Positions 1 through 53,588 of a stretch of DNA of 64,000 bases are shown here, one piece after another. The stretch's first letter is position 1. Every line of letters begins with the position of its first letter. This stretch comes from Geosiphon pyriformis uo1 (taxonomy: Eukaryota; Fungi; Glomeromycota), in assembly GCA_016748015.1 (NCBI GenBank), contig JAAOMT010000672.1:191431-255430 (forward strand), read 5' to 3'. The translations under genes and the position numbers were made by a program. The notes beneath the pieces are model-generated. The model was not told where the DNA came from, did not search any database, and saw only the letters and a program-made list of their open reading frames with translations.

Positions 1-3000
1 TAATTTACGAAAATTTCTTTGTCTTTAACTAAATTATTAATATGTTGATGTTGTTATTAGAGGTTTTTGGTCTCTTTTCTTGAATGTTATTAATATTTGT
101 CTGTTGCTAATTTTACATTTTCTGAAAGCAGTTGAACCTTCAATAACTGAATTTATTTTTAAATTGTCTCTTATAATTTGAACTGCTGGGCTTATAAGTA
201 GAATGGCCAATTCCATGCCAATTACTTTATGTACTTACATTGTAGTAAATGTCAACTCTTTTCCAGAAATTGCTTGTCTAGAAGCTCACTAAAAATGTGT
301 AGTTATTTTGCTGTGAAAGTCAACTCTTCTACAGGAATCTTATCTGTAGGCTACCCTAATAATTATAATTAAAAAAGAAATAGAATTTTATTAAGAGAAA
401 CGTTTTTTATCCAGGCCTGGAGTCACTAACAGATTACTGAAATTGGTAGCTAATCAATTTTAAAATGTTAGTTGTGTTTGAGGAAATTTCAAGTGCAATA
501 ATCAAAGAATTTGGTTTTCAAATATTTAATTTTTATTTGAATGTGTAAAAGATAATTTGTTCTAATTAAGATACTTTAAAGTAAGATATTATGTTAAGAT
601 ACTATAAGAAAATATATTTTCTTGAAGAGAGAAGCTCTTTTTTTATACAACTTATTATAGTACTAGTCTTCGAACTTGCACTTTTTTCTTTGTTACAATT
701 TGGGTAAACTAAGAATATATTTCAATAAACTACAAGTTATTTCACTGAACTATTAATTATTTCGGCCAATTTTCATTAATTTCGGCGAATTTTGACTATG
801 TTAAATAGGTTAGGGTATTGTGTAATTTAATCATCTTAATTTCTATTGTACAAATCGAATTATTGATTAAGTAATGATATTTAATAATTTGATTAAATAA
901 TAAGTGATAATTGAAATGATAATAATATATGCTAATTAATAATAAGAATTATGAAGATAATTTCATGCTAATTAATAGCTAAAATTTTACTGGTAACAAT
1001 GTTTAATCCAACACTTATTATATAAGTTAGGTGTTACTAATCTCAACTTAGCTTGACACATATTTATAAAAACCTGACTATCAGAAAAAATCATAATATT
1101 AAAAAAAGCTAAAACACACTCTAAAACTAGCATTATAATCTGTAACTCAGCCAAAGTTAATAACAGCAAACCATAAACTTCCACTCTTATGTCCAAACTC
1201 AAACTAAAAAAGTAAATGACAATACTACCAACTACCTCAAAAACCCAAATTTTTTAACAAAACCATTAGTGTAGATTGAAATCTCAGACAAAAATACATC
1301 TTTTAATTGAAAATAAACAGTACAAAAGCCAACCAAATCAAACATGTACATATTAGGACTAGAACCAAAAGCAGACTAAAAATTATGAACCAAACCACCA
1401 TCTCTAATAAAATCTAAAATCTGTGCAAACCAAAAAAGAATTAGACTTCTAAATTCAACTATTTTCAATGACAAAAATTCTTTTAAGAAAAACACATCCT
1501 GTGACTATTCAAAAATTAATTCACAAATATAATGCCAAAATGCTTAAGAAATTTATAGATTTGAAAATATTTAACTTAATCCAAAACATCCATTACAGAA
1601 ACTTTATTTTTGAAGTGAAAAACACTGAGCAGATTATTGTACAGACAAATTCCATTGTACAAAAAGATTTGAACAATATTAGCAAGAAAATTGTTTGTCA
1701 AATTGATCTTTAACCTAATTAAAAACCAAAAAAAATTATGAAAAACTCAGCCTAGCATCTGCAAATCCATTAACTTGTGTCAAAAAAACTGACCAAGAAT
1801 ACTGTAAGTATTGGCAAAGTTTATTACTAATGCTATCTTTTTCTTTACTTGAACTTGGTCAAAAAACTTTAAATTATACAGAGATAAATAGTATATAACT
1901 TTATTAGGAAAATTATTTAGCAAATTGGTCTTGGTTTTTAAGCTTTTTATGATTAATCAGTTCTATTTATTGCATATGCTCTTGATAACAAAGCTAAACT
2001 GAGTTCTGTATTCGATAATCAGCTGCAAAACTACAGAAACCAAATAAGAAAATTGTTTGTCTAAAATAACTTTGCACAAAATCATTGATACAAAAAACTT
2101 CATATTTAAATTAACTTTTTTCAAACACAGATTAAAAAGACTTTTGGTTAATAAAAAAATGCCCAAATATCAATAAACTTTGCCAGTATTTGCAACTGAA
2201 ATAAGAAAACCACTAATATCTAAGAAAACATCATTAAATCTTAGGTTTATTGAAATTGCTATTGTTTTTTTTTGTATTTATTGAAATGTTTATAATGTCA
2301 AAAAACTTGCTAACAATATTCAGAATGTTATGTGTTACTGTATAACAATTGCCAATCCAAATTGTATCATTCATAAAAGCATTAATAGCTAAGTATAAAG
2401 TCACACCTGTATTTGTCTTAATCCTACCAGTTCTGAAAGCAAATTTAGAATTTACATGGTACTTAAAAACCAAGTTATGTTTCTTTACTTTACACAAAAA
2501 AGAATCATAAAAAATCCTCCAAAAAAGAGGCAAAAAAACTTCATCCTAATCCAAACTATTATGTATTTTGTAATTATCAAACAAACTAAAGTTTATTATT
2601 ACCCTATTTCTATAGCTATTGTAAATATAACCAAAGAACCTAATAAATTTATTACACATTTTAATTCTTCTTAGACTTTTTTTCAAATGTAATCACTTTA
2701 CTGAATCATAAGCCTTTCTTATATCTTGAAGCACCAACCAAATCTCTTTGCCCTTTTTCAAAGCATTCTTTATTATAGACCCAATAGTAAAAATAAGATA
2801 TTGAGTTGAAATGCTTTTCAACACCAAAAAATTGTTTTTTTGTAGAATATTATGCTTACTGTAGACTTTAGATATTTGATCAGACAAAACTTTTAAAAGA
2901 ATTTTCTTTGTAGTTTCAATAAAAACAATTGGTTTAGTATTTATCAAAACACTCTCCTATTTATAAGGCTTTAGAATCATCAACACCCAAGCCTTTCTTC

Positions 3001-6000
3001 AAACATCAAAAACAGATTCAATATCCAAGCACAAACTGAACAGACATAAAAGAAAATTCAAAACATGTCTATTATACTATTTTTATATTTTATTAAAGAT
3101 ATCAGACAGTTTAGCAGTTTTACTATTAGAAAGCTTATTTACTATCAACAAAAACTTATCAAGGCTAATGTACTTTATAATACCAGAAAATGCTCTATTC
3201 TTAATGTACTTAAGGGATACAAACTGCTTCCTTCAATAAACAGGAATAACATCTCTAATCTTATATTTCCTTGTCCAATTTTTTATAATTGAATTTATTC
3301 TACACTTAATCAAATCAGATTCCAAAATCAAATTGCTATTATTTACTAAATAATTCAATATAACTTTTCTGAAAAACTTTTCTAACATGTTTCTTATTAT
3401 CTAATATTTGTTATTAACAAAAGCTTTTATGCATTTGGCAATAGCAGTTTTAATTCAAGACTTTTTAGCCACTTTAAAATCTAACAACTTACAAAACCTA
3501 TAAAACTTCTTGAAATAAAACAATAATTGCTTGATCAAGATTCTGCTGTATCTACCATTGAAAATGTCTTTAAATTCTACAGCCCAAACAGCATTTAGCC
3601 TGATTTATTTGGAAACTAAAGCTTGAATTTTCATTACATTATCTAACTTATATGTTTTCAGAATTTTAAACACTAGCAATTCCAATTTGTAAAACCTAAA
3701 GAATGCAGTGCACTTGAGAATACCATAATTCTGAAACCATGTTTTTGGAAAAGTGGCATTGGCTGTAGAAATTATTGCTTAACTGAGCAGATTCTACATC
3801 TTATTATCATCAGATTTTTTTTTATAGTTCTTAAAGTCATTGGCTATAGCCAAAGCAGCAACCAGCAACAAATTTTTAAACTTCATCCAGATTTTTTTAA
3901 CAATTCTACTAACTTTGAACTTCTATCTATTCTTAATAGTCTGCTTGTGTACTGAAATAAGTTGAAAATTGAGAAGTTTTTCCAAACCAATATTTACCAA
4001 AACTACTATGTGATTAGTATCAAAAAACTTATTTGGACAATAAATCTGTTGATTAAAAGAAACATTCTTAAGATTAACACTAACTAAAACAAAATTTATG
4101 CACTTTTTAACTTCTTTGGAATTGGATCATATAGGCAATTTACACATTAAAGAACTCTTAAAAAAACTACATAATTCTATATCTAAAAACTTTTTGAAAC
4201 TTGTACTGTGGCCAAAATTATTTTCATTGAAATCCCTTCTGAAAATCATGAAAATGCTATCATAAAATGCTTTAGCTACTATTGAGTTAATATTATATGT
4301 TTGAGTTAATTTTTTTTTCAGAGTAGTCTTAATATACAAACCCAAAATGAAAACCAAGAGACAATTTTTAAAAAGCAAATGTATTGACAAAAGCCAATCA
4401 ACTATTTTTGAGATTTTGTACATATGTTTTGTAATATTATTGTTAATTATCATAGTAATACCAGACTTTAAGTGATTGGAGTTTACACCAAAAGTAAAAA
4501 CTCTAATTTCATTAAACTTGTTTATTATCCAAGGACAAACTTTGCCTTTTAACTTAGTTTCCATAATAATAAAAACAGAATTATTCATATTTTTGTGCTA
4601 ACAAACAATGTTTTTTTGTTTTGCTAAATTGTTTATACCTCTTATATTGCATGTGGCAAATTTTCAAACCAGATTACTTATTAAGTTGAAGGAATCTGAA
4701 TTAGCACACAATTGATTTAATTTTGCTAGAACCAAATTGACAGAAACTTTGAAAACCATCATTTTAAATTCCAATTTACCAACTTTGAAGATTAAAATCT
4801 TTAATTTACTTGCAGCTAAATCTGAAACTGTATTATTAGCAACTAAAGAAGAAAGGATAGATAACATAAGCAGACTGTTTAAAACCATATTCAAATTCAA
4901 TCTTAATTCTGCAAGACCAAATGCAAAGGAAAAAAGAAAGTAAAAAATGGACACCAAAAATGTCAAATCCATAATGCTTAATTTTTGTACAATACCAGAA
5001 ACTTGATTAGCCAACAGCTTCAAAAACCACTTCAAGAAAGACAAGTAAGCATCAATAAAAGAAGTATTTTAAAAAACAGACAAACTTATACTATTGTGTG
5101 ATGTACCAAAAGAAGAGGAGCCAGAACCAGAATCAGAGTGAGTATTGTCAGAAAAAGCAGCAAGTAAAGCCACTTAAATTCAAGACTTGTCACTAAAAAC
5201 AACAGAATAAAAAATAAGAACACTTTTCTTTGTATACAATCTGGTCAACTGAAGATGACTTATATCCAAAACCATTTTTTTAAATGACTTAGAAGGCTTA
5301 AAAACATATGCATCTGTTGCATTATACTTTAAAGCAGAATGTCTGAATTTCTTATACTTTTCACACCAAACCAAATCTATCTTAACCCATAAAAGCTTCA
5401 TATTACCAAAAATTGGCTCTGTACAAAAGACAAACTCCAGTTTTTTGTCTGATTTAAAGCCAATTACAGCACAGCAAATCCAGTTGTCAATATCAAATAA
5501 GTAATTAATAATACATATTTTGCTATTAATTCTTTTTAATAGAGTGTTCAGATAATGAGCTGTTGTTTTCACAAGTAGAGTAAACAAAAGTGCTCTAAAT
5601 TAATCTTTAAAAGCCCAAATCCCATGATTTTCTATAGTCTTAGCTACACACACTAAATTTTTTTCAATAAAAAATAATCATCTGGTCATCAACTGATCTG
5701 TCTAACTTGATTTAGCAAATTCTACTACAGTCTTCTGTTATAGCCCAATTAGTTGCAATTGAATTAACACAATTTTCCCAAACTCAATCACTGCAGTGAT
5801 AATCATATTTTTAAACATATCTATGAAAATTTTCTTAATAATCACAGTCTGATTTGACCTGATTTTTTGTTTCTTAAGATTGCTGTTTACAATAATCCTC
5901 TTTTTTCTGGCCAATAACACAGTCTTTTTTATGCTTTTCTTTGAAGTAAATATTAATTTGATAATTTTCTCAAATTTTGAGAAGATAGTAGCCCTTCCAA

Positions 6001-6749: not shown

Positions 6750-8252
6750 TTACTTTATATATTGTTTTTAATAATTTATAAAATATAATGTATTTAAATT
6801 AAAATTAATATATATTATTTTTAATTTAATATATAAAACAAAAAAAACATTAAATAATTTAATAATTAAAGTAATTAAGACATTAATAAATTTAATAACA
6901 GATTTAATTAATAAAACCAATATAATTAACTTAAACTTTAAAAAAACCAAACAAAAACCAATTAAAAAATTAACAGTTATAATAACAAAAATAATTAAAG
7001 ATATAATAATAATAATAAAAATTAATAAAACAAAAGTCTTAATATAAGATTTAGTATTAATAAAATAGTATTTAAAATCTTAAAAAAAATAAATGATAAT
7101 ATTTGTATTTTAAAGCCAAATAATTTTTATTATAATACTTAAAACAGTATTAATAACTAAAAGTTTTTCACCAAATATATTATTTTTTTTAAAGTATTAA
7201 TTTTGACAATAATAATATTTAAATTTTTTTGAAATTAAAAATAATAATTATATATTGTAATTATTAAGCAAAGTTAAAAAGATAATATAAATATAACTAC
7301 AGATTTAAAAAACCAATTTGCTAATTTTAAAAACTATACTATTAATAAAAAAATTGATTAATTTGGGTTTAAATTTATTATTATAAAAACAATAATTTTA
7401 TTTTAATTAACTAAAAAAAATTTTTAATATTATCTTTTTATTAATACAAATTAACAAGCAAAAACAATATTAACAGCAAAAAAAACTTGAAATAAATAAT
7501 AATATAAAGTTATAAGCTAGTAAACTTTAATTTAAAAAACAATTTTACCAAAAACATTTAAAATAATATTAAAAAAAAATAAAAAGTGAACAAAAAATTA
7601 CAAAAAACTTTGTAATTTTAAAATAAAAAATAATAATTTGTATAGCTATTATAAATATGTTCAAAAAATTTGATAAATTTATTGTATATCTTAATTTTTT
7701 TTAAATTATTATTTAAATATGTTTAATTTATAAAATTGTAAGCTTTGTATATTTTTTGAAAAACCAACTATATTTTTTTATTTTTTCTATAAGATTTTCG
7801 ATTACTAATCTAATAGCAAAAATAAAAAATTGAATTAAAATATTTTTTAATTGAAAAACTGTTATTTTTTAAAATTTTAAATTTGTTATAAGCTGTAAAA
7901 ATCTGATTAAATAAAATTTTTGATAAAATTTTTCTTATAAGCTTAATAAATACAATTAGTTTAATGTTTATTAATATGCTTTTCTATTTATATAATTTTG
8001 AAATTATTGAAACTTGAAACTTTTTTTTAAGTATTAGAAACTGTTTTTTTTAATAAACATATATTTAACAAATTTAAAAGCTAAATTATAACAAACTTAT
8101 TACAATATTTTCATATCTTATTGATAATTCCAAAAAAACTTGCAGGTTTTTTTTTAAGAAAATTTTTAATAATTAACAAAAATTTATTAAAACTAATTTA
8201 GAAAAGCAAACTGTTTCTGCCAATAAAAAAAATTACATTTTTAATTATATGC
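6750..8252 (-). mobile_element. Heavily decayed LINE copy 2, 3' portion (RT region)
   Basis: Extremely AT-rich. Minus-strand remnants YWQKQFAFL, KPASFFGIINKI*KYC and IYKAYN parallel the RT region of LINE copy 1. Joins 17730+ across the ATGC TSD. Confidence 0.6.
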
Positions 8253-9293
8253 TGTTACCGGAGGTTTTTTGGTCTCTTTTCTTAAATGTTGGTAATGTTG
8301 ATTTGCTGTAAATTCACGTTTTCAGGAAGTAGTTGAACCTCCAATAACTGAATTTATCTTCAAATTATCTCCTATAATTTGAACTGCTGGGCTTATAAGT
8401 GGAATGGCCAATTTCTTGCCAGTTACTTTATGTAGTTACGTTGTAGTAAACGTCAACTCTTTCCCAGGAATTGCTCGTCTGGAAGCTCACTAAAAANNNN
8501 NNNNNNNNNNNNNNNNNNNNNNNNNNNNNNNNNNNNNNNNNNNNNNNNNNNNNNNNNNNNNNNNNNNNNNNNNNNNNNNNNNNNNNNNNNNNNNNNNNNN
8601 NNNNNNNNNNNNNNNNNNNNNNNNNNNNNNNNNNNNNNNNNNNNNNNNNNNNNNNNNNNNNNNNNNNNNNNNNNNNNNNNNNNNNNNNNNNNNNNNNNNN
8701 NNNNNNNNNNNNNNNNNNNNNNNNNNNNNNNNNNNNNNNNNNNNNNNNNNNNNNNNNNNNNNNNNNNNNNNNNNNCAAATTATTTGGTATTTATTTCTTT
8801 TTGTGTGTGTAGAAATGGTTCTAAGTAATAAATCTAAAGTAAGATACATTTTCCAGAAGAGAAAAGCTCTTCTTTTATACAACTTGTTGTAGTACTAGTT
8901 TATGAACTTGCACTTTTTTCTCTTTGCCCAAATTCCAGCAAACTAAAGATACATTTTGATGAACTACAAGTTATTTCGCTGAACTATTGATTAATTTGGG
9001 TGAACTATTTATAATTTCGGCGAATTTCTGTAAATTTCGGCAAATTTCTTATAAATTTCGGCGAATTTCTGTAAATTTCGGCGAATTTTTGAATGTTACA
9101 GAGTTCAGGGTATTGTGTAATTTGATCATCTTACTTTCTGTTATACTAATTAGATTATTTTAATTGAATCGTGATATGTGATAATTGATTAAATAATAAA
9201 TGATAATTTGAAATGATATTAATATACTAATGAATTATAGGAATTATAAGGGTAATTTCATGNNNNNNNNNNNNNNNNNNNNNNNNNNNNNNN
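8253..9293 (-). repeat. 3' LTR of the Gypsy element (inner end lies in the N gap; coordinate estimated)
   Basis: 8926-9262 is essentially identical to 17362-17698; 8253-8496 matches solo LTR 52-295. Confidence 0.88.
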
Positions 9294-9329
9294 NNNNNNN
9301 NNNNNNNNNNNNNNNNNNNNNNNNNNNNN

Positions 9330-9845
9330 ATTTTCACAAGTATTAAACAAATCATAGAGTCTAAAAGCTGCTCTAAGTTTGTAGCAAGTGTTTGTTGGTC
9401 CAGCTGCTGTTTTGAATTCATTGTAGATTTGTTTTTGTATAACTTTAGGAGTGAGATTTGTTGCTTCAAGTTCCAGTTTTCGTTCATAAAGTGTTTTTCC
9501 AATTTGAAAGTATTTATAGATAGGGGTGTGTTCATTGTTCTGTTCATTAAGAAGTAGTAGTAGTTTTTGTTGCATTGTAGCATTTAGTGAAATGTTAATA
9601 GGGGCAATTAGCAGATTTTCTTCTAGTGCCTGCTTCAAAAGTCTTGGTAATCTATTTTCAGAGTGACTTCTTGTTTCTCTTCTATAGGGGTGATAGTTCT
9701 GTAAATGATTTGCTACTGAGACTGTGGTTTCTTTCTGAATGTATTTAATTTGACTTCCATTAATCGTTATAGATAAGTCAAGGAGTGTTTTCAAGGCTAA
9801 CATTAATTTTTGGGATATTTGTTGAATATTTCGGGGAATAATCAT
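9330..9845 (-). CDS. Extra ORF3 of the retrotransposon, unknown function (C-terminus lost in gap)
   Basis: ATG-initiated, about 172 open codons, between the end of the integrase frame (~9966) and the 3' LTR, same strand as pol. No recognisable domain. Confidence 0.6.
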
Positions 9846-9965
9846 GATAAAATTGACTAATTATGAAAAGAAAGAATAAAGAAAATTATTTTTTGGATAT
9901 GGAGTTTTTATTTGTTTTTGGGTTTGGGTGTTTTGTAATTATTTACTATTTTTGTTTTTGTGTTT

Positions 9966-11425
9966 TTAGTAGAGAATTATTGTAAAATTTAAGTGTTCAA
10001 TTTTGGTTGTTGTTCTATTATAATTATTGGTTCTAAATTTCGGGGAATATCTTCAGGATTAATTAAAGGGGAATGTGTACCAATTTGTGGAATTAATGGT
10101 TCAAGATTGTTTCTGGAATGATAGTGTTTCAGTCTGTTTCCATGTGCAACTTTTGCTAATATTTTGTTATCAAGTCTTAACTTATATGATCCATTGCCTA
10201 GAATTTCGTGAATATAAAATGGTCCATTCCATTTGTTTTCAAATTTCCCACTCCATTGTTTTTCAGCCTTAGTTCTGTGTAAAAGAACTTTATTTCCAAC
10301 TTTAAATTTGTTGGTAATAGATGGTAATTTGTTGTTATGTCTTTCTTTTTATTGAGCTTGGGAATATTCAATATAAGCTGCTGCTATTCTTCTTTTTCCT
10401 TCCAGTGTACTAAGAAGAGTGTAGGCTCTTTTTTGGAGTGTTTCTTGAAAGTTTTCTTCATTGATTGGTTGCACTGGGTATGTTTTCACTGTGAAATTAA
10501 TTGGTAATGTTGCTGTCCTTCCATAAGTAAGATCAAATGGTGTGTGTTTCATAGTATTTTGTTTTAGTGTTCTGTATGCTAGTAACACTGATGGAATAAA
10601 GATATTCCATTCCTGTTCAAAGTCTGTTAAGACTTTGGCTAAAAATTCACACAATGTTCTGTTAAAACATTCTACAAATCTATTTGTTTGAGGGTGATAA
10701 GGTGATGATAGAAGTCTTTTGACATTGAACCGTTCACAAATTTCTTGTATCAAGTTGTTCACAAAATGTGTTCCTTGATCAGATAAGAGTTCAAATGGGC
10801 ATCCATGTCTACAGATAATGTCTTCATAGATGAATTTTGCTACTGATTTTGCATCTGCTCTTTGGATGGCTCTAGCTTCAGGCCATTTGGTAAGATAATC
10901 CACTGCAACTGCAATATAATGATTTTCTTGGGTTGTGATAGGTAATGGTCCGACTAAATCAATTCCAACTCTGTTAAAAAGTTGTCCAACTTTGATTGGA
11001 TTTAAAGGTTCTGTGGGGTGAGTTCCTCTTCTTTTTTGGCAGTTATCACAAGATTCTACATATTGTTGAATGTTTTTTTGCATGTAAGGCCAAAAATAAT
11101 GTTCAAGGGTTCTTTGAATTGTTCCCTTTTTTCCCAAGTGTGCTGAAGACGGATCTGTGTGCATGTTGTATAAAATTGTTTCTTTTTTATTCTCTTGTAC
11201 TAATCTGAGTGGCTGGTTTGGTTTTCTGTGATTTTTATAATAAATTTTGTTCTGGTGTATGAAATATTGTTTTGATTGGTGTTGTAAGTGGTGTTTTTCA
11301 CTTGGAGACCAGTTTTCTGGCATGGTAAGGGTCTCCAAATAATTTTTAAGATTGCTGTAGTTTCTGGGGTCCCATTCTTGTTTGGTTATTTTGTTGGTAA
11401 GTTGTGGTGGAATTGTTGTTGATAT
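9966..11425 (-). pseudogene. Integrase (HHCC zinc finger, DDE core, GPF motif), one premature stop at 10349
   Basis: H-x6-H...CDNC; GIDLVGP, LLSDQG and VECFNRTL core motifs. The frame continues past the TAA into ...KWNGPFYIHEILGNGSYKL. Confidence 0.92.
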
Positions 11426-12286
11426 TAATCTTGTCTCATTCTTGAGAGGCTATCGACATTGGTATGTAGTTTTCCTGGTTTGTGGTATACAATATATCTG
11501 TAGTCTGCTAGGAAGTCATTTCATCGAGACTGTTTGGCACTTTGTTCAGTTTTCTTTTTATTGAGTTATTTGAGACCAATGTTGTCCGTTATTATGTCAA
11601 ATTCTTTTCCATTTTTCAGATATTGTTAAAAATGTTTAAGAGCCCAAATAACTGCAACAGCTTCTAATTCAGTTGAGCCATATTTGAGTTCTGTTGGCTT
11701 GAGTGTTCTGCTGGCATAGGCAATAACTTGTTCTTGGCCATTTTCATCCAATTGTGATAAGATGGCACCAAATGCTATGTGTGAAGCATCAGTGGCTAAT
11801 TGGAATCGTTTGTTGAAATCTGGGTAAGCAAGAACTGGGGCTGTTGTCAATTTTGTTTTGAGAATTTCAAAAGCTTTTTGTTGTTCTTCAGTCCATTTGT
11901 ATGGTACGTTTTTGTTGATAAGATAATTGAGTGGTTTGGCAATTTCTGAGAATCCTTTTATAAATTTTTGATAGTAAGAGGCTAATTTTACAAATCCTCT
12001 TAGTTCTGTAGTATTTTTGGGGGTTTGAAAGTTTTTGACAGCATTGATTGTTCCTGGATTTGGTTTGATTCTATCTTTACTAACTATGTGTCCAAGAAAG
12101 ATCAAACTTGTTTTTCCAAAGTGACATTTCTCAATATTTAACTTTAATCCTGCTTTCCGTAATTGTTGAAAAACTTCTCGCAAGTGAATAAGATGGGCTT
12201 CAAAGCTTGGTGAGTATACATCAGTATTATCAAGATAAACAACTACTGATTGCCACAAGAGCCCTTCATAGACAACATTCATGAGT
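11425..12286 (-). pseudogene. Reverse transcriptase (C-terminal half) and RNase H
   Basis: VVYLDN (degenerate YxDD), LKLNIEKCHF, FLGHIV, LATDAS, IAYASRTL, ELEAVAV, ITDN, DSLSR. The RT N-terminal half is missing at the 20-N gap 12287-12306. Confidence 0.92.
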
Positions 12287-12661
12287 NNNNNNNNNNNNNN
12301 NNNNNNTTATAATTTCGATGAAATTAGAGACAATTTGAGGGTTTTCATCTTGAAAGATATTGCTGTGTATGATTCCAATTTCTAATTTGTTTAATAAAAC
12401 AATAGGGTAATTATTGGGGTTGTAGAATGTAACTCAAAATTTTTTCATTCCTTTGGGAATATAAACGTTTGGAATTGATATTTCATGCTTCAAACAGATT
12501 TGTTCATTGGATTCAAAGATTTGTTGTGTAGTGGTGGGTTTTGAGCAAGTGTAAATTTCGTGATGTTCTCCAAAAGATGAAATGGTAATTGGCTGAAAAA
12601 GTTGAAAAATCTGGTGAGATTCATTTTGTGTATTAAGAACTATGTTTACTGGGACTGCAAA

Positions 12662-13070
12662 TCATCCAGTTGAACCAAAACCTTGAGTTCCTCTTTCACT
12701 TTTTCCCAATTGTTCTTTGTTGTTTACTGATTGTAAACCCGAAATGTTGATTAAGGGTAAGTAAATTGCTTGAGCAATTTTTTCAGCATGTTCAATTTTG
12801 AATGGTTTGTCTGTCTCATTCTGTAACATGATGGTAATGTCTCCAGTGTATTCTGCATCTATAACTCCTCCTCTAATATTGATTCTTTTGCTTGCCAATG
12901 ATGATCTGGAGGCAATTTGAACCATTGCTCCTGGTGGAATTTCAAGAGCAATTTTTAGATTGATTTTTGTCAAAGACTTTGGTTGGAGAATTAAAGTATC
13001 TTTTCCTAGGTATCTCAAGTCATATCCAGCATCAATTTCGTGTGCTTTTTCTGGTCTGATTCCTTGGTCA
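12662..13070 (-). pseudogene. dUTPase domain within the pol polyprotein
   Basis: All five trimeric dUTPase motifs: DAGYDL, ASRSSLA, GGVIDAEYTG, KIAQAI, RGTQGFGSTG. Confidence 0.93.
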
Positions 13071-13219
13071 TGGTTGTCAAAATATTTAAGTTGTAGAGGT
13101 GGTTGCTTTTCAAGAAGATAGATGGGAGTGGTTGGTAGTTCTTTTATTTGTTCAGATACTCCAAATTCGATTTCATTTTCATCATTCTCATCTGGCAGAG
13201 GAATGCTAAGAACATAACA

Positions 13220-14740
13220 TTCTAAACACCATTGGTCATTACAAGGCATAACATATTCTTCACACAATTGAATGTTCATTTGCTCTAATCATTAAATTTG
13301 AGCTTCTTTGGTCGGATATGTATGGTTTGCAATTTGGTGGTAGGTTTCTACTTCATCTTCATAATTAAATCCAGCTAATTCCATGGTGTACTCAATATAT
13401 TCAGCTTCTTTCATTTGGTGGACATCTTCTTGAGTGGCTCCATTGATTAATGTCATTGCTAGGTCAAAAATCATTTCAGCATCATGAGGGTAGTGGTAAA
13501 GTTTATTGAAAGCACTGCTGTATGCTGCATCAAATGGTGTCCCTCTTCTGACTTTTTCCGAAATTGATAGAGCATATTGACAGGTTTGATCACATATTCC
13601 TCCTCTCATTGCTACATCAATCCAATTGCATTCTTCTGGTAGTATTTCTCCACATGTAAGGCAAGATGTGTTGTCCCATTTTCCACTTCTTTTTGGAGAT
13701 CCAAATCGTTCTCTATGGCATGCTTTGCAAAAGTAACAGATACAAGTTTCATATTCCTCTTCTGGAGAAATACATGCTCCTATTGATGAAAGTTTTTTGT
13801 TGCAATCTTTGCATTTGAGTGGAATATAGAGTGGTTGTTTCTGTGGTTCTGGTGTAGAATATCTAACTTTCTTCCATNNNNNNNNNNNNNNNNNNNNNNN
13901 NNNNNNNNNNNNNNNNNNNNNNNNNNNNNNNNNNNNNNNNNNNNNNNNNNNNNNNNNNNNNNNNNNNNNNNNNNNNNNNNNNNNNNNNNNNNNNNNNNNN
14001 NNNNNNNNNNNNNNNNNNNNNNNNNNNNNNNNNNNNNNNNNNNNNNNNNNNNNNNNNNNNNNNNNNNNNNNNNNNNNNNNNNNNNNNNNNNNNNNNNNNN
14101 NNNNNNNNNNNNNNNNNNNNNNNNNNNNNNNNNNNNNNNNNNNNNNNNNNNNNNNNNNNNNNNNNNNNNNNNNNNNNNNNNNNNNNNNNNNNNNNNNNNN
14201 NNTGTGTTCTTCTTCTGACTTTTTCCGAAATTGATAGAGCATATTGACAGGTTTGATCACATATTCCTCCTCTCATTGCTACATCAATCCAATTGCATTC
14301 TTCTGGTAGTATTTCTCCACATGTAAGGCAAGATGTGTTGTCCCATTTTCCACTTCTTTTTGGAGATCCAAATCGTTCTCTATGGCATGCTTTGCAAAAG
14401 TAACAGATACAAGTTTCATATTCCTCTTCTGGAGAAATACATGCTCCTATTGATGAAAGTTTTTTGTTGCAATCTTTGCATTTGAGTGGAATATAGAGTG
14501 GTTGTTTCTGTGGTTCTGGTGTAGAATATCTAACTTTCTTCCATCCTTTTGATTCTTCGAAAATCTCTTGTTCGGTTTCTTCAGCCCAATTGGATGTTGA
14601 TCCAAGAGCCATGTAGGTTTCAGTAAGTGGCATTTCTTTTTCCTCTTCAAATTCAAATACTGGAGCTTTTTCTGATTGTTTGTTAAAGGTACCACAAGTT
14701 GCAGGTACTATGGTATATTGTCCTTGGTATGAGATTTTAA
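13220..14740 (-). other. Cys-rich insert between protease and dUTPase (partly duplicated by assembly)
   Basis: CKDC...CICYFCKACH...CLTC...CDQTC...PCNDQWCLEC, in frame with the protease and dUTPase segments. Confidence 0.7.
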
Positions 14741-14744
14741 GTTC

Positions 14745-15254
14745 TTAATTTTCCCAGTTCAGGTTTGCATTGGCCTTGAGAAGCCAATCATTTCCGACTA
14801 GAGCTTGATATTGAGGTGCATCCATAACAAAAACTTTAACTGGAATGGTGATTCCATCAATTGAAAAAGGGAAATTATTAATTTCTCCTGCTGGAGTCTT
14901 TTTCATACTATCAGCTGTGACAATAACTGTTTGAGCTGGTCTGTCTACGTTTTGTTTGAGTTGTTGTATCAGCTGGTAAGTGATGATACTTCCAGCTGAT
15001 CCACTATCTAAGATTAAGCAAATGAGTTTTCCTTTCACTGTAGCTTCTGTGTACATGGCAGTAATTGTTTTTTGTTCATTGACTGCTGCATTACTAAGCA
15101 GAAATGGTGATTCATTTGCCTCAAATTCAAATGGAAATATATCTGACAGATTAACATTTTGGGCAATTTGAGCTGGGGGAATAGTGTAGTTGGAAGAGTT
15201 TGATCTTGGTGCTGCAATTTCATCTTCAGAAAGTGCAGTTTGTTGAAAATCCAA
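14745..15254 (-). pseudogene. Retroviral-type aspartic protease domain
   Basis: LILDSGSAGSII active-site motif and ALVGNDWL flap-distal motif. Confidence 0.9.
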
Positions 15255-16838
15255 TTCCTCTGGTATTGTAAGATAACTGGGTTGAGTGTGATAGTGATTG
15301 GGTCTTTGCTGGCCCGAATTTCAGGAAACCAACTGGTTATTTGGATTGATTCTGTTGTGGTTATTCTGCAATTGATTTTGGGGTGTGGATTGGTTATGTT
15401 GAACCAATCTTCTTGCTGGTATCTGATATTGTTGAATGGGTGGTGTCTAATATGGCTGAATTGGTAAAGGTTGCTGATATTGTTGCTGCATTGATTGTGG
15501 AGCTGGTGGATAGTAACTGTTTTAATTTTGTGGTCTTGGTGAATAATAAGTTGGTGGTGGAGATTGGTAATAAGATTGTTGTGGTGAAGAATAATGTTGA
15601 TTACTCCTGTTTTGTTGGTCTCTTTGTAATTTCCTACAATCTCGTTTCCAGTGTCCTAGAATTCCACAATAATGACAATTTTGAGATTGGTTGTTGGATG
15701 ATGATCCAAAATTGTTTTGGTTGCATTGTTGTAGGGGTTAATATCTTTGTGGTTGTTGTTGCTGTTGTTGTTGGTTTGTGAAGTAGCTTTCAACTTTTTT
15801 TGTGAGTTGGTCTATCTTCTTTTCAGCTGCTAAGCTGGTTTCTCCAATTGCAAGGTTTACAAGCTTGATGTGATTTGCTTCTTTCATTGCTATTTCATAG
15901 CTCTTTGCATGTCTAATAGCAGTTGCTAAGTCTGCTGGAGCATGTGGACAGACTTTTTTAATCAGTTTGTCTTTTAATTCTGCTATAAACTGATCCAGAA
16001 TTTGAGCATCAGAATAGTAGTCATTGGTTTCCAATTGTCAGATTTGTCTGAGAAGTTTGTTAAATCTTCCAAGATAGGTCATAACAGATTCAGATGTTTC
16101 TTGTTTGATATTGCAAAAGCAGTTTCTAAGAGTGATAGAGGTATTGTTGTCGGTAAATTGTTGTAGAAAAGCATCTTTGAATGCTTGCCAGTTTTCAAAT
16201 GGTTTTTCTAAATTTTCAAACTATTCTCCTGCTGTTCCTTGGAGAAAGTAAGGAATTGCTTTAAGCATTCTTGCTGCAATCCAACCATTTGCATCTCCTG
16301 CTTTTTGAACTTTGTTAAGCCATTCTTGGGGACTGGTATCATTGTCTTCACCAGTGAATTCTGGGATTTTTGCAATGTAAGCAGTTGCCATTTTTTCTTC
16401 GTTTTCTGGAATCTCTTCTGGTTCTGATTCAGTTTCTTTACTTTCCAAGCTTTTTGAGTGATTACTTTCATTTTCCTGTAAGTAATCAATGATATTGGCA
16501 CTTGTTGATATTGGTTCCTGCTGTTGAGTAGGATTTTTAGGTGACTGAAAATCTTCTGGTCTGGAGAAACGGCTAAGTGGTGAACTTGGTATTTGTGGTT
16601 GAATAAATAAAATTGGAAATGGTGTAATAGAAAGTGGTAATTTGACACTGGTTCCTTGTTTAGGTGTTTGCAAGTGTTTGGCAGTTGTCTTTTGTAGTGT
16701 TGGAGTGTTTGGAGTGGTTCTTGAGTATTGCTTCAATCTTTGTTTGCCTTTATTGCTTGTTTCTGTCTCTGATTCAAAGTCAAAAGAGTATTTAGACTGT
16801 ACTGGGTATTTTTCTTCACAATACTTAATAATATTAAA
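15255..16838 (-). pseudogene. Gag (capsid-like region, CCHC zinc knuckle, Q/P/N-rich linker); start lost in gap
   Basis: IPEFTGED..PQEWL..., ILDQFIAEL..., and CHYCGILGHWKRDC at ~15636-15677. Same frame as the protease, broken only by single stops. Confidence 0.88.
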
Positions 16839-17361
16839 NNNNNNNNNNNNNNNNNNNNNNNNNNNNNNNNNNNNNNNNNNNNNNNNNNNNNNNNNNNNNN
16901 NNNNNNNNNNNNNNNNNNNNNNNNNNNNNNNNNNNNNNNNNNNNNNNNNNNNNNNNNNNNNNNNNNNNNNNNNNNNNNNNNNNNNNNNNNNNNNNNNNNN
17001 NNNNNNNNNNNNNNNNNNNNNNNNNNNNNNNNNNNNNNNNNNNNNNNNNNNNNNNNNNNNNNNNNNNNNNNNNNNNNNNNNNNNNNNNNNNNNNNNNNNN
17101 NNNNNNNNNNNNNNNNNNNNNNNNNNNNNNNNNNNNNNNNNNNNNNNNNNNNNNNNNNNNNNNNNNNNNNNNNNNNNNNNNNNNNNNNNNNNNNNNNNNN
17201 NNNNNNNNNNNNNNNNNNNNNNNNNNNNNNNNNNNNNNNNNNNNNNNNNNNNNNNNNNNNNNNNNNNNNNNNNNNNNNNNNNNNNNNNNNNNNNNNNNNN
17301 NNNNNNNNNNNNNNNNNNNNNNNNNNNNNNNNNNNNNNNNNNNNNNNNNNNNNNNNNNNNN

Positions 17362-17729
17362 GCCCAAATTCCAGCAAACTAAAGATACATTTTGATGAAC
17401 TACAAGTTATTTCGCTGAACTATTGATTAATTTGGGTGAACTATTTATAATTTCGGCGAATTTCTGTAAATTTCGGCAAATTTCTTATAAATTTCGGCGA
17501 ATTTCTGTAAATTTCGGCGAATTTTTGAATGTTACAGAGTTCAGGGTATTGTGTAATTTGATCATCTTACTTTCTGTTATACTAATTAGATTATTTTAAT
17601 TGAATCGTGATATGTGATAATTGATTAAATAATAAATGATAATTTGAAATGATATTAATATACTAATGAATTATAGGAATTATAAGGGTAATTTTATGCT
17701 AATTAATAGCTAAAATTCTACTGGTAACA
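17362..17729 (-). repeat. 5' LTR of the Gypsy element (visible part; the rest and the PBS lie in gap 16839-17361)
   Basis: Matches 8926-9262 and ends in CTGGTAACA followed by TSD ATGC. Confidence 0.92.
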
Positions 17730-19750
17730 ATGCTTTCTAATCCAATTTTTTATAATTAAATTTATTTTGTTCTTAATTATATTAGATTTTAAAACCAATT
17801 TTTTATTGTTAACTAAATAATTTAAAATAACTTTTTAAAAAATATATTTTAATATTTTTAATTATTAAATCTTTGTTATTAATAAAAGTTTTTATATATT
17901 TAATAATAGTGTTCTTAATATATGAGTTTTTAATAATTTTAGAATTAAATATTTTATGATTTTTATAAGTTTTTTTGGCATAAACCAAAAATTGTTTAAT
18001 TATATTATTATTAAAACCAATATTCAAAAGTTTTTGAAAATTTACAATCAAATCTGAATTAAGCTTAATTTATTTATCTGTTAAAATCTAAAACTTTATT
18101 AAATTATTCAACTTAAATACTTTTAAAATTTTAAACACAAACAATTTTAATTTAAAAAATTTAAAAAACACCATATTTTTAACCAAACTATTATCATAAG
18201 ACTATATTTTTAAAAATACAGTATTAACAATATAATATAATATTTTATTAAACAATATTTATATCTTATTAAGATCGAATTTTTTTTTACAAACTTTAAA
18301 ATTATTTACAATTTACAAAATAGTATTTAGAAATAAATTGTTAAACTTTATTTAAACTTCTTTGATAATATTGTTAACTTTATATTTTTATTTATTTTTA
18401 TTGGTTTGCTTATATACAAAATTAAGCTAAAAACTAAAAAATTTTTAAACCAATATTTAAAAACAAAACTAAATAATTGGTATTAAAAAAGTTATTAAAT
18501 TAAAACACTTATTAATTAAAAACTAAGTTTTAAAATTTATTATTAACCAAAATAAAATCTATATATTTTCTTGTATTTTTAAAATTAAATTATATAAACA
18601 ATTTATGTAAACAAAAATCATTAAAAAAATTAATCAAACTCATATACATAAATTTTTTAAAATTAATATTACAACCAAAATTATTTTTATTGAAATTTTT
18701 ACTTAAAATCATAAAAATATTAATGTTTAAAATCTTAATTATTATATAATTAAAATAGTATCAAACCCAAAATAATAATAACTAATTACTTATCTTTAAA
18801 TAATAATTAAATTAATAAAAATCTATTAAAAATCTTAAAAACTTTAAAAATATATTTAACTAAATAATTATTTATAATAATTGTATTTATTTATTTAAAA
18901 TTAGATTTAAAGATAAATATTAATCAAATAATTTCATAAAATTTTGAAAAAGTAAAAAATTTTTCAAATTTATTTACTTAATAAAATAATTTTTTAATTA
19001 GTTTTAATATGTTATTCAAATTTTTTTTTAAAACACCTAATATTTTAATATTTAATACATATAATTTTACAGATATAAAAATCTTTTTTTTTTTAATAAA
19101 CAAGAAATTTAGTGTCTTTTTGATGACTAAAATTAATAAAAAAAGATTTAATACTTTGTTATTACTTGTATTATTAATTAAAAATAGATATAACAATTTT
19201 AATAAATTGTAAATAATAATATAAATATAATACAATATTTTATTATTTATATTTTTATTATCTTTTAAATTATTTAAATTAATATAATAAGTTTTTTCTA
19301 TTAAATTATCTATATTATTAATATCTAAAACATTATTAATACTACTTATCTTGTTGCTTATTTTACTTTTTCATAATCTGTTCAAATTATAATTTGTGTT
19401 TTTTAAAATATTTAAAACCAAAGAATTAGCAAAAATATTGATTATAGTAGTAATGATACCAAGTTTTTTTGTCTTTTTGTTAGTGTTTTTATAAACAAAT
19501 ATGAGTAAAAACCGATTTTTTTTGACATTTAAACAGAATTTTACATTAGTTTTACCAATGTTTAAAGCTTTAGTAAAAGATATTGCCAGTTTTATTATTT
19601 TAAAAGAATTAATATTAACAAAAAAAGTTACAAAGAAAAAATATAAAAAACAAATAAAGTAAAATTTCTAATCAAATTTTTTTTTAATTATTATAGCTAA
19701 AAAATTCAAAAATGATTTTAAAAAAAAAACTCTTTTTTTATACATTTTAA
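17730..19750 (-). mobile_element. Heavily decayed LINE copy 2, 5' portion
   Basis: The 17809-18051 translation (YAKKTYKNHKIFNSK...SYIKNTIIKYIKTF...) and LVLKSNIIKNKINLI..WIRKH parallel LINE copy 1 around 3300-3500. Very AT-rich. Confidence 0.6.
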
Positions 19751-25418: not shown

Positions 25419-28400
25419 TTATGATGTGGGGAATTCTTTATCGTCTTCCGTAGTCTTATCCACAGGTGAAGTCGTTATCTGTGAAGAGAAATAGTTCGGG
25501 GTCAATGATGGGGGAATCAAAGAAGAATCATTAATAGAACGATTTGTCGAAATCAATCTAGGCGATGAAGCAGCACTATCGATAAAAGTTGTTGAGGGCG
25601 AATTGAGAGGCCCTTGTGAATGTTTGCTAATTTTCGAACGACTAGGTCGGCTCTTCAAAGGGGAATCAGCATTTGGCGATATCCCTTCATTTTTTTGAGG
25701 TAAATGAGAAAGAGAAGCGCTCATTGGTTTCATTTCGTTACCAATCCCCCGAGTGTTACAAATACCCTCCGATTTCATCGAACTGATTGAATCTGATCTT
25801 CGGCGAGACTGAACATGTGACGAGGAATTTTCCCAATTTTCCACATCCAGCAAATAAAACTTGACACCTTTAGGTAAATCGAACGGGTTAGAGGCGGGAT
25901 CCTAAATAATTAGAGTGTAGAATAGAAAATTGATTATTCAATTTTCTCCTTTAAAATGTTGGAAGTCCAAAGCGAATATTGCATACCGCACTATCAGCGA
26001 TGCATTCTCTTATATCGACGATTCTCATAACAATCCAATCCCTACTACGTAACTGACTGTTAATCGAGTCGTTAGGGTTCAAAAAGTAATGGGGGGACTT
26101 TATGTTGAAGGCTGCCCAAATCTTGGATGTAGTATTTCGTGTTGGCAAAAACATCGCCAAATCTCCAATTTTGAAACTACGAAATCAGCAATATCTCAGA
26201 TATAATGTATATTTTTAATAAACAAAATAAGTGGATCCAAATGTCAAGAATTACTCACTTTTGGAAAGCTAACTTGTTTTTCGACTCCCAACAGGCTCTC
26301 TTATATTTCTCTAAAAGTGGTAAAACAAAAAAATTACAAATTTGATCGATTGAATAGATCAAAGAATATTATTGGCTTACATACCCTGAGAAGCCTTGTA
26401 TTCTTTCTGATGTTTTCTAGCTAAATTTTCCGCGTCTTTTGGAGATCGTCTGACCAATTCACGAACTTGCTCAAGGTCTACCTTGCTTGCAAGATTGATC
26501 AAAGTCAAGTAGCGTTCTTTAGGCCAATCATCATCGGTTTCCCTCATTTTTGCAAAAAATTGATTTAAATCTTCAGCAAGGTAGCTATCAGACATTGTTC
26601 CTTCAGACGATTTTACTTCATCGTTGTTTACTGGACTTTCTAAACTTTTTTTTTCTGACACAACTGGAATAGCAACCTGCATAGCACTCATTAAGCTGCG
26701 AATATGATCGTAGTAGTTCCAAAGTTTGTTGCTTAATGACCCCGCAAGCATAGTTCTTTCAGCCACTTGATTTTGCAATTTGCTATTCAAATCGTTAAGA
26801 TTTTGGCATGAGGTTTGTGAATCTTTCAAAGACTAAATTGAGGAACCATGATTATGATTGAAATTTCAGATTCTGTCGTCATACTAAATAGTTTTCTATC
26901 AGGAAATACCCTGCGTTTATCCTGTAAATCTTCTTCTATCCTGGTTGTCAGACTTCCAAGCTTTTGAACCATGTTTAATGGATCGACCTTGATAGAGCCA
27001 ACACATAAATGAATAAAAAAATTATTTAGATTTATGACTAGGTTCAAAAAGCTACAGGTATGATATTTACCTCTTCGGATGTAGGAGCTGAGGGATCGAG
27101 AATCTCCAGGTATTCCGTTATAGAATCGGTAAGATCTTTTACCAATTTCTGGGCCTGATCAAATACATTCGTGTAACGCTATATAAAGCCTTGGATAGAA
27201 AATAAATTTTGAGGAAATTTATAAATTTATCATACCTTTTCAAGAGAGACTTCTTTTTCCGCATAAATTCGCTTAGAAAGGTTTACCTTTTCAATGAGCT
27301 ATAACCAAGGGTTAACAGAGCGAAACTAAAATATCCATAACTTTATGAAATCATCCATATTTACCTGTGCATGCTTTTTTCGTGCGTCATCCAGAGCTTC
27401 TTCACGATTTGCAATTTTCATCTTTAAGTTTTCTCTTTCTCTTTCCATCTGAGAAACAAGAAACCTTTAGAATCCCATGTCATTTAATTAGATTCAATTG
27501 AATATGCATTATACACATACATGAGCATAATTTACTTTAGCATTCTCGGCAGCTGCTTGGTGAATTTGACTCATCTTAGTCAATTCTTCGCTTTTTTGTT
27601 TCAACTTTTTCTTTGTGTCCTGTAATTCTTTATCTCTATCCTCCAAATCTTTTTCCATAGTTTCACGTAATTGAATAGCCGCGAGACGTTCAGATTTTAA
27701 TGCTTCTGTTCGTATCCTCAAAGTCTTGGTATCATAATTATATTTTTCTTGGGTTTGGTGGTTTTCTTGAACGGACCTTTCGTATTTCTCGCTCAAATTC
27801 TTGAGGGAAATTTGTAAGTCTTGATTCTCTGCAGCTAAAGAGTTCACCTCTGCAAGTTTTTTTTCATGCTCCTCGTTAGTTCCTTTGAGTTCGGGAATCA
27901 GTGTCTCCAAATACTGGCAATGCTGTTCAATTGATTCATTTTTATCACCAAGATCCTTATAGCGTTGTTCAAGGGTTTCATTTTCTCTCACAGCATCCAG
28001 GTAAGATTTTTCTAATATCTGATTTTTTTTGGATGCCTCTGTAAGAGAGAATTCAAGATCTTGAAAACGCTCTTCCATATCGCTTGCACGTTTTTTTAAT
28101 ACTTCATTCTCTTTCAAGACATTATCGTAATCATGCTTTTGAGAATTGTAGTGAGTTTCAATCTCATCTAATTGAATTCTGAGATATTCTCTTTCACCAG
28201 AGAGCTCAGTATGAGCGGTTTCCGTTTCATGATCTCGGGCTTTCAAATCTTCTATCTTTTTTACTAAATTCTCATTATCACTTATGAGATCCACATATTT
28301 CGTTTCGATCTCGCGATAATGCGCTTCGATGTCATTGACTCGTTCCTCCAAAGCTACCTTTTCCCCTTTGAGATTGTTATGTGCAGATTGCAAATCTTGG

Positions 28401-45144: not shown

Positions 45145-45840
45145 ATGGGTTCATCGTCCATGGAAAACAATGAAATTCTCTCTAATGAAAATGATCTAAC
45201 CTCAAAAAACGAATCTCAAGAATCCCTGGATATATTACGTTCATGGTCAAGCATATCAAATCCAGGAATGAATGATGAACATGTGATTGAATATTTAGAT
45301 GATTTCCTGAGTAATCACAAGCAATCTGCTCAAGTTCTTTTTGAAAAAATCGAAGCCGTAGCTTCAACCAATCAAGACTACGCATGTATTCTTGGATTTC
45401 TCTATCATAAGGGATTTGGAACTAATACTAACTTAAGATTGGCCTTTGATTGGTACTTTGTTGCGGCAAAGAATCATGATTCATTCGCTCAAAATCAATT
45501 TGGTTGGCTGTATGCTAAAGGATATGGGACAGAGAGGGATAATGATAAGGCGTTTTATTGGTATGCTGAATCGGCTAAACAGGGACATACTAGTGGAATG
45601 TCTAATTATGGATTCTGTTATGAGACTGAAATTGGAACAAGAAAAGATTTGAAGAAGGCTTTTTATTGGTATAAGCGAAGTGCTGATTTAGGTGATGAAC
45701 TTGGTCAGTGCAATGCTGGAAATTGTTATCTATTAGGAGATGCCACAAATCGCGATGTTCATGCGGCGATTTTAATGTTCCTAAAGGCGAAAAACTCTGG
45801 TGCTTGTTATATTATGGACAATTTGCATTATCTGTTTTAG
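45145..45840 (+). CDS. Sel1-like repeat (SLR) protein, single exon
   Basis: About four Sel1 repeats: LGFLYHKGFGT..AFDWY; AQNQFGWLYAKGYGT..KAFYWY..SA; YGFCYETEIGT..KKAFYWYKRSA; AGNCYLLG. Confidence 0.92.
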   Translation: MGSSSMENNEILSNENDLTSKNESQESLDILRSWSSISNPGMNDEHVIEYLDDFLSNHKQSAQVLFEKIEAVASTNQDYACILGFLYHKGFGTNTNLRLAFDWYFVAAKNHDSFAQNQFGWLYAKGYGTERDNDKAFYWYAESAKQGHTSGMSNYGFCYETEIGTRKDLKKAFYWYKRSADLGDELGQCNAGNCYLLGDATNRDVHAAILMFLKAKNSGACYIMDNLHYLF

Positions 45841-52496: not shown

Positions 52497-53588
52497 ATGT
52501 ATAGCAACAAACAGCTTTCCTCCAACAAGACAACTAACTTCTTCGACACGGTTGCTTACAATATGATAGATGATAAGCATAATGATAATGATTCGATCGA
52601 TCAAAGAAGAAATGAACCTTCCGATTTTTCAGGCTCATCAATGAACTTAAATACGGCAATCGACAATAATTACAATCATGAAATTATTAACATGACTATA
52701 GATTTTCAAAAAAATTTTGCATTTAAACCTACTTTCCCACCACAAATATCTCCTCAAGATCTTTTAACTCCTAAATTAAGTGCTTTAGACGTAAGACCTT
52801 CCAAACCACCAAACGCATTTATTATATATCGCGTGGCTGCCGTGAAAGAGTTAAAAGCTCATGGTTGTGGTGCTATTCAAATGACGAAACTTTCAGGAAG
52901 AATTTCCGACTGCTGGAAGCAAGAACCAGAAAATGTGAAAGCATTTTACAAAAGTTTGGCTAAAGAAGCAACGAGATTATATAAAGAAATGTTTCCAAGA
53001 AAAAGAGGAAGAAATCCAAAGAGGCAACGTATTGTTCCTGATCCTTTATATCAGGATGTTTCAAAGATTAGAAATTCTGATACATCTACTACCGCTTTAA
53101 TTACTCAAACTTCATATCTGGAAAATTCTTTGCAAAATGTTCAACCCCAATCGCAATCACAACCTCAACCTCAACCTCAACCTCAATCACAGTCACAGTC
53201 TTGGCAAGATATGATATCGACTCTTAGGCCAAATTTCGAATTAGATCGTCAAGTTCACCAAACCATGACCGCAAACAGCGAATCTTTTGAAGTTGAAACT
53301 GGTAATGAATTCGGGTTGAGTTCTTTTACCCACGATTTCAATAACAATATTCACCAGCCTGTTTCAGTTCGTGCAGCCGAAACTCATTCTTCGCTTCAAA
53401 ATACGCCCTCTCCCTTAAGTGGGCCAATTCAAGAACCCTCGACTGATGACTGTTTTCATTTTGTGAGTTTAACTCATTATCATCAGGAAGTCTTCAAATT
53501 TCATTTCCATTTGTTACATCATGGGAACCCTTTTAATAGCATCGCGGATGCTCAAAACTCTGTTCTGTTCAAATTCCACATAGTATAA
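52497..53588 (+). CDS. HMG-box (MATA_HMG-type) transcription factor, single exon
   Basis: RPSKPPNAFIIYR...QMTKLSGRISDCWKQEPENVKAFYKSLA..A..LY..MFP, preceded by FKPTFPPQISPQDLL and followed by a basic NLS-like RKRGRNPKR and a QP/QS repeat. First ATG at 52497. Confidence 0.92.
   Translation: MYSNKQLSSNKTTNFFDTVAYNMIDDKHNDNDSIDQRRNEPSDFSGSSMNLNTAIDNNYNHEIINMTIDFQKNFAFKPTFPPQISPQDLLTPKLSALDVRPSKPPNAFIIYRVAAVKELKAHGCGAIQMTKLSGRISDCWKQEPENVKAFYKSLAKEATRLYKEMFPRKRGRNPKRQRIVPDPLYQDVSKIRNSDTSTTALITQTSYLENSLQNVQPQSQSQPQPQPQPQSQSQSWQDMISTLRPNFELDRQVHQTMTANSESFEVETGNEFGLSSFTHDFNNNIHQPVSVRAAETHSSLQNTPSPLSGPIQEPSTDDCFHFVSLTHYHQEVFKFHFHLLHHGNPFNSIADAQNSVLFKFHIV

Follow-up and report, generated by a model that had tools for sequence, protein, structure and literature searches.

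The 64,000-nucleotide (nt) stretch of contig JAAOMT010000672.1 from Geosiphon pyriformis uo1 analyzed here (the window) carries, on its minus strand at 8253-17729, a decayed, dead copy of a multi-copy Ty3/Gypsy-type long terminal repeat (LTR) retrotransposon. The integrase of this element lies outside the frame that encodes reverse transcriptase (RT) and RNase H, and starts at a methionine codon of its own. Judged by sequence comparison, the element belongs to a widespread lineage, found in mycorrhizal fungi and their relatives, whose integrase has a gene to itself. The overall explanation that we favor, and regard as rather probable, is that this gene is expressed from its own start codon, by way of a shorter RNA or internal ribosome entry, and that its product would be loaded into particles apart from Gag-Pol.

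Relatives of the integrase were gathered by a metagenome scan in which 80 of 466 confirmed loci were kept; 47 of these include RNase H upstream. All 13 loci with an integrase identity of at least 40% and RNase H upstream are split, i.e. the integrase forms its own open reading frame (ORF) after a stop, and 11 of the 13 have a methionine at the homologous position. Below 40% identity, 24 of 34 loci are fused and ten are split; two of the latter (L027 and L036) look like members of the lineage, and the other eight lack a methionine within 7 codons of that position. The integrase is also fused in five further distant elements. Relative to the pol stop, the integrase ATG lies at -11 to +727 nt in the relatives (49 nt in the window copy), and all three frames occur. 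The split is seen in relatives whose pol and integrase are long open frames. Direct terminal repeats are present in L004 and L018.

The same start is found in the protein databases, where many of the closest single-domain relatives have a methionine exactly at residue 27 of the query integrase. G. pyriformis P0270 and P0174, which begin with MDPRNY and MDFRNY, both match the window integrase at this residue. Many database representatives are methionine-started integrases of 410-450 amino acids (aa). The named hosts of such proteins are Rhizophagus irregularis, Paraglomus brasilianum and Lichtheimia ornata, the last known from protein alone; another named match, which belongs to a protein set of Caulerpa, is placed outside the core group by the integrase tree. 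The viral collection contains no relative of the single integrase, and alignment-based scans of viral and prokaryote sequences recovered only distant fused elements and bacterial transposase-like matches. In the protein cluster of P0272 and at loci L090 and L091, eukaryotic retrotransposon contigs occur within prokaryotic genome bins, one example being a lineage integrase labelled as Nitrososphaeraceae archaeon; these are likely contamination.

The integrase has a Y-P-Y-Y-like stretch N-terminal of the H2C2 finger, as judged by eye in the alignment, and ends ∼40 aa past the GPY/F region. No Chromo match at E 0.1 was obtained in its C-terminus, using a library that detects Chromo in other integrases. 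In trees built from unnamed Gypsy-type rows only, the split elements cluster, with 3 changes compared to ∼13.5 after shuffling in both the RT-RNase H and the concatenated trees (for the latter, 12 of 71 rows were removed as long branches, near-duplicates or rows with RT downstream of the integrase).

The assignment to Ty3/Gypsy is based on direct LTRs with TG...CA ends, a short target-site duplication (TSD), and the order of gag followed by protease, RT, RNase H and integrase. The termini read TGTTACC...GGTAACA, with 7-bp inverted ends, and the LTRs are in direct orientation. Pfam detects on the minus strand, in order, gag, a CCHC knuckle, an aspartic protease, a dUTPase, the C-terminal half of RT, RNase H, integrase H2C2/rve and a Tf2-type SH3 (GPY/F), and has no match for the Cys-rich insert or ORF3. 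Where visible, and with decay stops discounted, gag to RNase H forms a single frame (gag-protease-Cys-dUTPase-(RT)-RNase H). A canonical property of Ty3/Gypsy elements, the integrase as the last domain of a single Pol polyprotein, is lacking in the window element, as it is in all 13 of its close relatives. TGG-led candidate primer-binding sites follow the LTR in four relatives inspected (L001, L004, L016 and L018), and the window's own site lies within an N gap. An earlier note on this stretch, made from the sequence alone, had described intact termini with a TSD, two extra modules inside pol (the Cys-rich insert and the dUTPase), an integrase out of frame with RNase H and a third ORF before the 3' LTR; each of these is borne out by the features below.

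17730-17733 (5' LTR side) and 8249-8252 (3' LTR side): TSD ATGC, 4 bp.
17362-17729, minus strand: visible start of the 5' LTR (TGTTACC...); the rest of the LTR, the primer-binding site and the start of gag are inside the N gap 16839-17361.
15525-16838, minus strand: gag, with a long N-terminal part, capsid Retrotrans_gag at 16041-16220 and CCHC at ∼15630-15680; interrupted by stops.
14784-15047, minus strand: aspartic protease, in the same frame as gag.
14204-14544, minus strand: first part of the Cys-rich insert, printed a second time next to an N gap; likely an assembly artefact.
13061-13876, minus strand: Cys-rich insert, ∼270 aa, 16 Cys, CxxC-type clusters.
12665-13054, minus strand: dUTPase domain of the trimeric type, by Pfam and structure matching.
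12307-12661, minus strand: spacer between dUTPase and RT, without a Pfam match, followed by a 20-N gap that covers the N-terminal half of RT.
11428-12285, minus strand: C-terminal half of RT and RNase H; the stop TAA is at 11427-11425, four codons past the RNase H end motif.
11376-11424, minus strand: CAA-rich, G-poor stretch of 49 nt that separates the pol stop from the integrase ATG.
9989-11375, minus strand: stand-alone integrase ORF, with a YPYY-like N-terminus, H2C2, DDE core and GPY/F, no chromodomain.
9330-9845, minus strand: ORF3, 172 visible codons, stop-free.
8253-9262, minus strand: 3' LTR, ∼1 kb, with its start in the gap 9263-9329 and an internal gap at 8497-8775; ends with ...GGTAACA.
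52-998, minus strand: solo LTR of this family, 947 nt long; the pieces that align are 70-86% alike, and a separate 4-bp TSD, ATGT (on the plus strand), flanks it.

The family LTR length of 947 nt is judged from the solo LTR at 52-998. Both TSDs in the window (ATGC of the element and ATGT of the solo LTR) read ATGY, a possible target preference. In three relatives an in-frame TGA-CTA is located between protease and RT (L008 870-875, L021 1585-1590 and L018 3358-3363); UGA-CUA would be a possible readthrough signal.

The window copy is in poor condition. Five N gaps lie inside the element. Hidden by them are the larger part of the 5' LTR, the primer site, the beginning of gag, the N-terminal half of RT and ∼64 codons at the end of ORF3. 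A Cys-rich stretch is printed twice, at 13537-13877 and 14204-14544, on either side of a gap (339 of 341 nt identical), most likely as an unmerged contig overlap. The element has 15 premature stops; the 11 from gag through the spacer are best read as single transitions, because sister proteins mostly have Gln, Arg or Trp at every such site. The observed/expected CpG ratio is 0.17 in the element, compared to 0.88 and 1.09 in host gene regions, and the differences among contigs in run X1 (59,461 contigs) are mainly transitions. We infer from the sequence that this decay was driven by methylation. Although the interior is decayed, the LTRs are identical at 336 of 337 comparable nt, and the scaffold may therefore be a mosaic of copies; either mosaic assembly or late insertion of a template that was already dead would account for this mismatch. 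The integrase ATG (at 11375) is directly followed by a single surplus G, and a premature stop interrupts the integrase at 10351. In run X1, 12 contigs have a 1-nt deletion at 11371, which leaves out the surplus base; runs X2 and X3 contain next to nothing of the element.

The stops, the gaps, the duplicated piece and the surplus base would all suit the view that an ordinary Gypsy element has simply died here and that the frame change reflects its decay or faulty assembly. We consider this extremely improbable: the split shown by relatives whose pol and integrase frames are long and open, 13 of 13, largely refutes it, and the many methionine-started integrases of 410-450 aa among the database representatives point the same way.

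That the integrase is translated independently is very probable on sequence grounds. The Gag-Pol polyprotein frame would end after RNase H, and the integrase would begin at its own AUG, the context of which has a purine at -3 in 18 of 23 cases and G at +4 in 18 of 23. As for the route, the sequences tip the balance slightly towards a separate RNA or internal ribosome entry instead of termination-reinitiation, in which ribosomes that end pol would stay on the full-length RNA and resume translation at the AUG of the integrase. The latter, which we judge rather unlikely, would suit the overlap of stop and start in L004 (TAATG), L021 and L006, as well as the short spacers (n = 8, 30-110 nt), which contain 1 ATG in place of ∼6 expected. 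However, a spacer is present in 12 of the 15 split loci, and the four long ones (278-727 nt) each contain 3-12 upstream ATGs, near the shuffled expectation, which argues against scanning from the pol stop; the final ∼60 nt of the spacer lack an ATG in 11 of 12 cases. Moreover, a conserved RNA structure adjoins the ATG in 8 loci.

This structure is a covarying three-helix RNA motif, consisting of GTGAAAGC-NNAA-GT followed by a 5-bp stem that closes a CANNGTGA loop. The pattern occurs 8 times in the 1.09 Mb scanned, every time just upstream of an integrase start (L007, L009, L011, L013, L015, L016, L022 and L023). All 70 cells are paired and 5 of the 10 pairs have changed on both sides, with the main helix having been selected for pairing by the search pattern and the outer pair 4-40 not so selected. 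No credible match was found in Rfam.

The spacer could also be an intron, whose removal would re-fuse RNase H to the integrase and restore an ordinary Pol polyprotein. A Rhizophagus gene model, P0470, which is a prediction, joins the two in this manner while omitting the N-terminus of the integrase; the adjoining accession, P0471, is annotated as a methionine-started integrase. The fixed position of the methionine and its good start context make an intron very improbable, as does the fact that 7 of 12 spacers have no YAG in their final 60 nt, and loci with overlapping stop and start have no space for one. If the integrase is a separate product, it would reach the particle separately from Gag-Pol. 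Loading by binding to genomic RNA, in analogy to the Pol protein of foamy viruses, stands at about even odds.

Several observations weigh against this account of a separately expressed integrase and of the lineage defined by it. The pol stop overlaps the integrase ATG in 3 of the 15 split loci (-1, -8 and -11), which fits stop-restart. The stem-loop pattern, which itself selected the main helix, is absent from the window and from most relatives. The split elements are not a supported clade and have three fused proteins among them; a tree that holds the split group together is not rejected (approximately unbiased (AU) test, p 0.615). Furthermore, the window copy may be a mosaic, and the deletion at 11371 makes up only 39% of the depth in run X1.

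A dUTPase between protease and RT is already known in other elements, and it is the layout with a separate integrase that is unusual. PosPlaTy3-5 of Postia placenta is likewise a fungal Gypsy element with a dUTPase in this position (PMC2864245); the same source cites dUTPases in Gypsy elements of Phanerochaete and in Tuber Tmt1, and regards the domain as gained independently. According to that report its elements encode either a single Gag-Pol ORF or two ORFs, Gag and Pol, whereas in the window lineage the integrase has a gene of its own. The report describes no Cys-rich insert; the window element has one, and lacks a chromodomain. The YPYY non-chromovirus Gypsy elements (Athila/Tat, Cer1, Gypsy-1-I_RO and DGLT-A; PMC2836005) share the YPYY-like stretch (by eye), GPY/F and TGTNR termini. 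Compared by description only, they differ from the window element in that its integrase is a free-standing ORF. Foamy viruses (PMC7828637) also translate an enzyme apart from Gag and package it via genomic RNA, a likeness of analogy and not of kinship, but there the whole of Pol is separate, on a spliced mRNA, while here the integrase alone is. No Gypsy lineage with a separate integrase ORF is described in the literature searched, which did not extend to Repbase, GyDB, the supplements of PMC2864245 or the papers on Phanerochaete, Tuber and the genome of Geosiphon.

The dUTPase domain of the window element matches solved trimeric dUTPases over its whole length. The standard role of such enzymes is to limit uracil in cDNA, and this one likely does so in the cDNA of the element. 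The spacer at 12307-12661, from its look, may be dUTPase-like as well. Of the 16 Cys positions in the Cys-rich insert, 14 are conserved in 81-100% of sister proteins, and Tyr is the usual change; because of this conservation the insert likely binds zinc. It has no match in Pfam, PHROG or the viral collection. The dUTPase and the Cys-rich insert are absent from the seven relatives with a protease-RT region, and a profile of the Cys-rich insert found nothing in the first 80 relative loci. Both modules are local additions.

ORF3 has a wider distribution. Intact G. pyriformis copies are 221-239 aa long (235 aa in intact sister copies), read across the polypurine tract and end inside the 3' LTR, so that the C-terminal MLPVEF is the LTR start read in frame. 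Homologues are located 3' of the integrase in 11 of the 18 relatives that have at least 450 nt downstream, and leave-one-out searches recover 10 of these 11. The named family members are from Cetraspora, Diversispora and Dentiscutata (Diversisporales). A profile made without Geosiphon rows matches 88 of 120 Geosiphon ORF3 proteins at E ≤ 0.5 (best 6.8e-6); among the 3874 sequences searched, it matches no further protein or locus ORF. DUF1016_N was considered as a match for ORF3 and rejected; it is weak (5 of 48, best E 0.015) and was not borne out by the wider family (1 of 13). No usable match to ORF3 was found in Atlas.

A model of the family, made for the protein of L011 and not for that of the window, is an all-helical, small soluble bundle (pLDDT 89). 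It has no structural match (best Z 5.0, with a root-mean-square deviation of 4.3 over 82 residues) and no Foldseek match at E 0.001, which does not prove that the fold is new. The model from a Geosiphon-only alignment is poor (pLDDT 47), with no fold match. ORF3 occupies the position of env, and dUTPases are also found in retroviruses (PMC2774666), as would be expected of an infectious, retrovirus-like element in which ORF3 is an envelope or movement protein. Such an element is most improbable: the highest 19-residue hydropathy value in four ORF3 proteins is 0.6-1.0, with no hydrophobic or membrane segment in any of them, and the modelled family is soluble and helical. ORF3 is not an envelope.

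Bdelloid Juno, Vesta and TelKA (PMC5408684) and Cer1 CERV (PMC10309623) offer parallels for a dUTPase combined with a non-envelope ORF3, and for an accessory protein that exports genomic RNA; their ORF3 proteins are of the env, GDSL or DEDDy types, however, and have no Pfam match to the ORF3 of the window family. By analogy, ORF3 might tentatively be seen as a soluble helper protein that would bind nucleic acid and assist the export or packaging of full-length RNA. Running counter to this proposal, and to a common ORF3 family, are the lack of a family member in 7 of the 18 relatives with at least 450 nt downstream, the distant link between Geosiphon ORF3 and the rest of the family (hhalign probability 28.9, E 0.0006), the failure of the non-Geosiphon profile to match the truncated ORF3 of the window itself, and the composition of Geosiphon ORF3, which is not net basic (24 K+R and 24 D+E). 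The proposed role draws on analogy and on solubility.

The element family is abundant in G. pyriformis, 41.2% of whose genome consists of LTR elements (PMC11952901). The Cys-rich query matches 288 of 459 candidate proteins and the ORF3 query 140 of 212; the 120 listed for each are all from G. pyriformis, the most likely host, and no match is identical to the window sequence. For the 120 listed Cys-rich proteins, the alignment extends to the dUTPase in 67-69 cases, to the protease in 102-104 and to the capsid in 56, and 19 of the 120 are within two locus tags of an ORF3 protein, compared to a mean of 3.1 and a maximum of 11 in 2000 shifts. The idea, taken from gene models, that gag starts inside the LTR was dropped, because other models join the same gag exon to differing LTR pieces, which look like predicted splicing.

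These results bear on the earlier note in several ways. The Cys-rich insert and ORF3 are not peculiar to the window copy, a possibility that it had raised against itself, since at least 120 G. pyriformis proteins carry each. Its proposal of a distinct lineage is supported by the separate integrase and ORF3, which are common to relatives far outside the Geosiphon genome; the dUTPase and the Cys-rich insert, whose co-occurrence it had wished to see mapped, were not found in the seven relatives with a protease-RT region. Its emphasis on virus-like accessory genes as the novelty is not supported, as ORF3 lacks a membrane segment and PosPlaTy3-5 has already been described with a dUTPase in the same place (PMC2864245).

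The separate integrase also relates to the origin of Ginger1 transposons, for which the path from Gypsy has been called unclear (PMC2836005). As described there, Ginger1 similarly has a free-standing, methionine-started Gypsy-type integrase with H2C2, DDE and GPY/F, together with a 4-bp TSD and TGTNR ends; its YPYY motif may correspond to the Y-P-Y-Y-like stretch seen by eye in the window integrase. It differs in having terminal inverted repeats of 40-270 bp and no gag or RT, whereas the window element has LTRs, gag, RT and only 7-bp inverted ends; the TSDs are CCGG/CCGT compared to ATGC/ATGT in the window, and the Ulp1/OTU domain is absent from the window element. In one tree, two Ulp1-bearing Ginger1-like proteins and two of their kin are nested among the split integrases (SH-aLRT 89, 86 and 89). 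The nesting was not reproduced in a second tree (4 changes; for a split group that excludes these proteins, AU p 0.405). The split-integrase lineage may be regarded as a candidate source of Ginger1. A more far-reaching scenario, of a deep Mucoromycota Gypsy lineage with an uncoupled integrase, its own leader RNA structure, an ORF3 of new fold that exports or packages RNA and integrase, and the place of an intermediate towards Ginger1, would be unlikely to hold in full.

Other features were noted in the relatives and in the window. An N-terminal gag domain with CxxC and FWxW, without a Pfam or PHROG match, is common to relatives (L001 3157-3780, L016 6801-7436, L025 3144-3506, and the starts of ORF1 in L004 and L018). 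Other inserts are located at L016 3497-4438, L018 4945-6702, L024 1-1400 and L004 7404-8255; the insert types include long tails, acidic or Cys/His-rich, that follow RNase H, a repeat rich in Cys ahead of gag, and an additional ORF between integrase and ORF3 that is coiled-coil-like by eye. The window also contains decayed reading frames at 4127-5599 on the minus strand, which we take to resemble the endonuclease region of a non-LTR retrotransposon. Its host genes presumably encode a long coiled-coil protein (25419-30670), a Sel1-repeat protein (45145-45840), an MFS transporter (46967-48440) and an HMG-box protein (52416-53588).

More than 100 annotated hypothetical proteins of G. pyriformis are ORF3 of this element, which affects gene-family counts in this fungus. 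A free-standing Gypsy integrase beside an RT would offer a simple route to Ginger1 transposons. LTR retrotransposons normally package their integrase as a fusion with Pol, and a lineage without this fusion must solve stoichiometry and packaging in another way. Since Rhizophagus irregularis, a model fungus, has members of the lineage, the question of the separate integrase is testable there.

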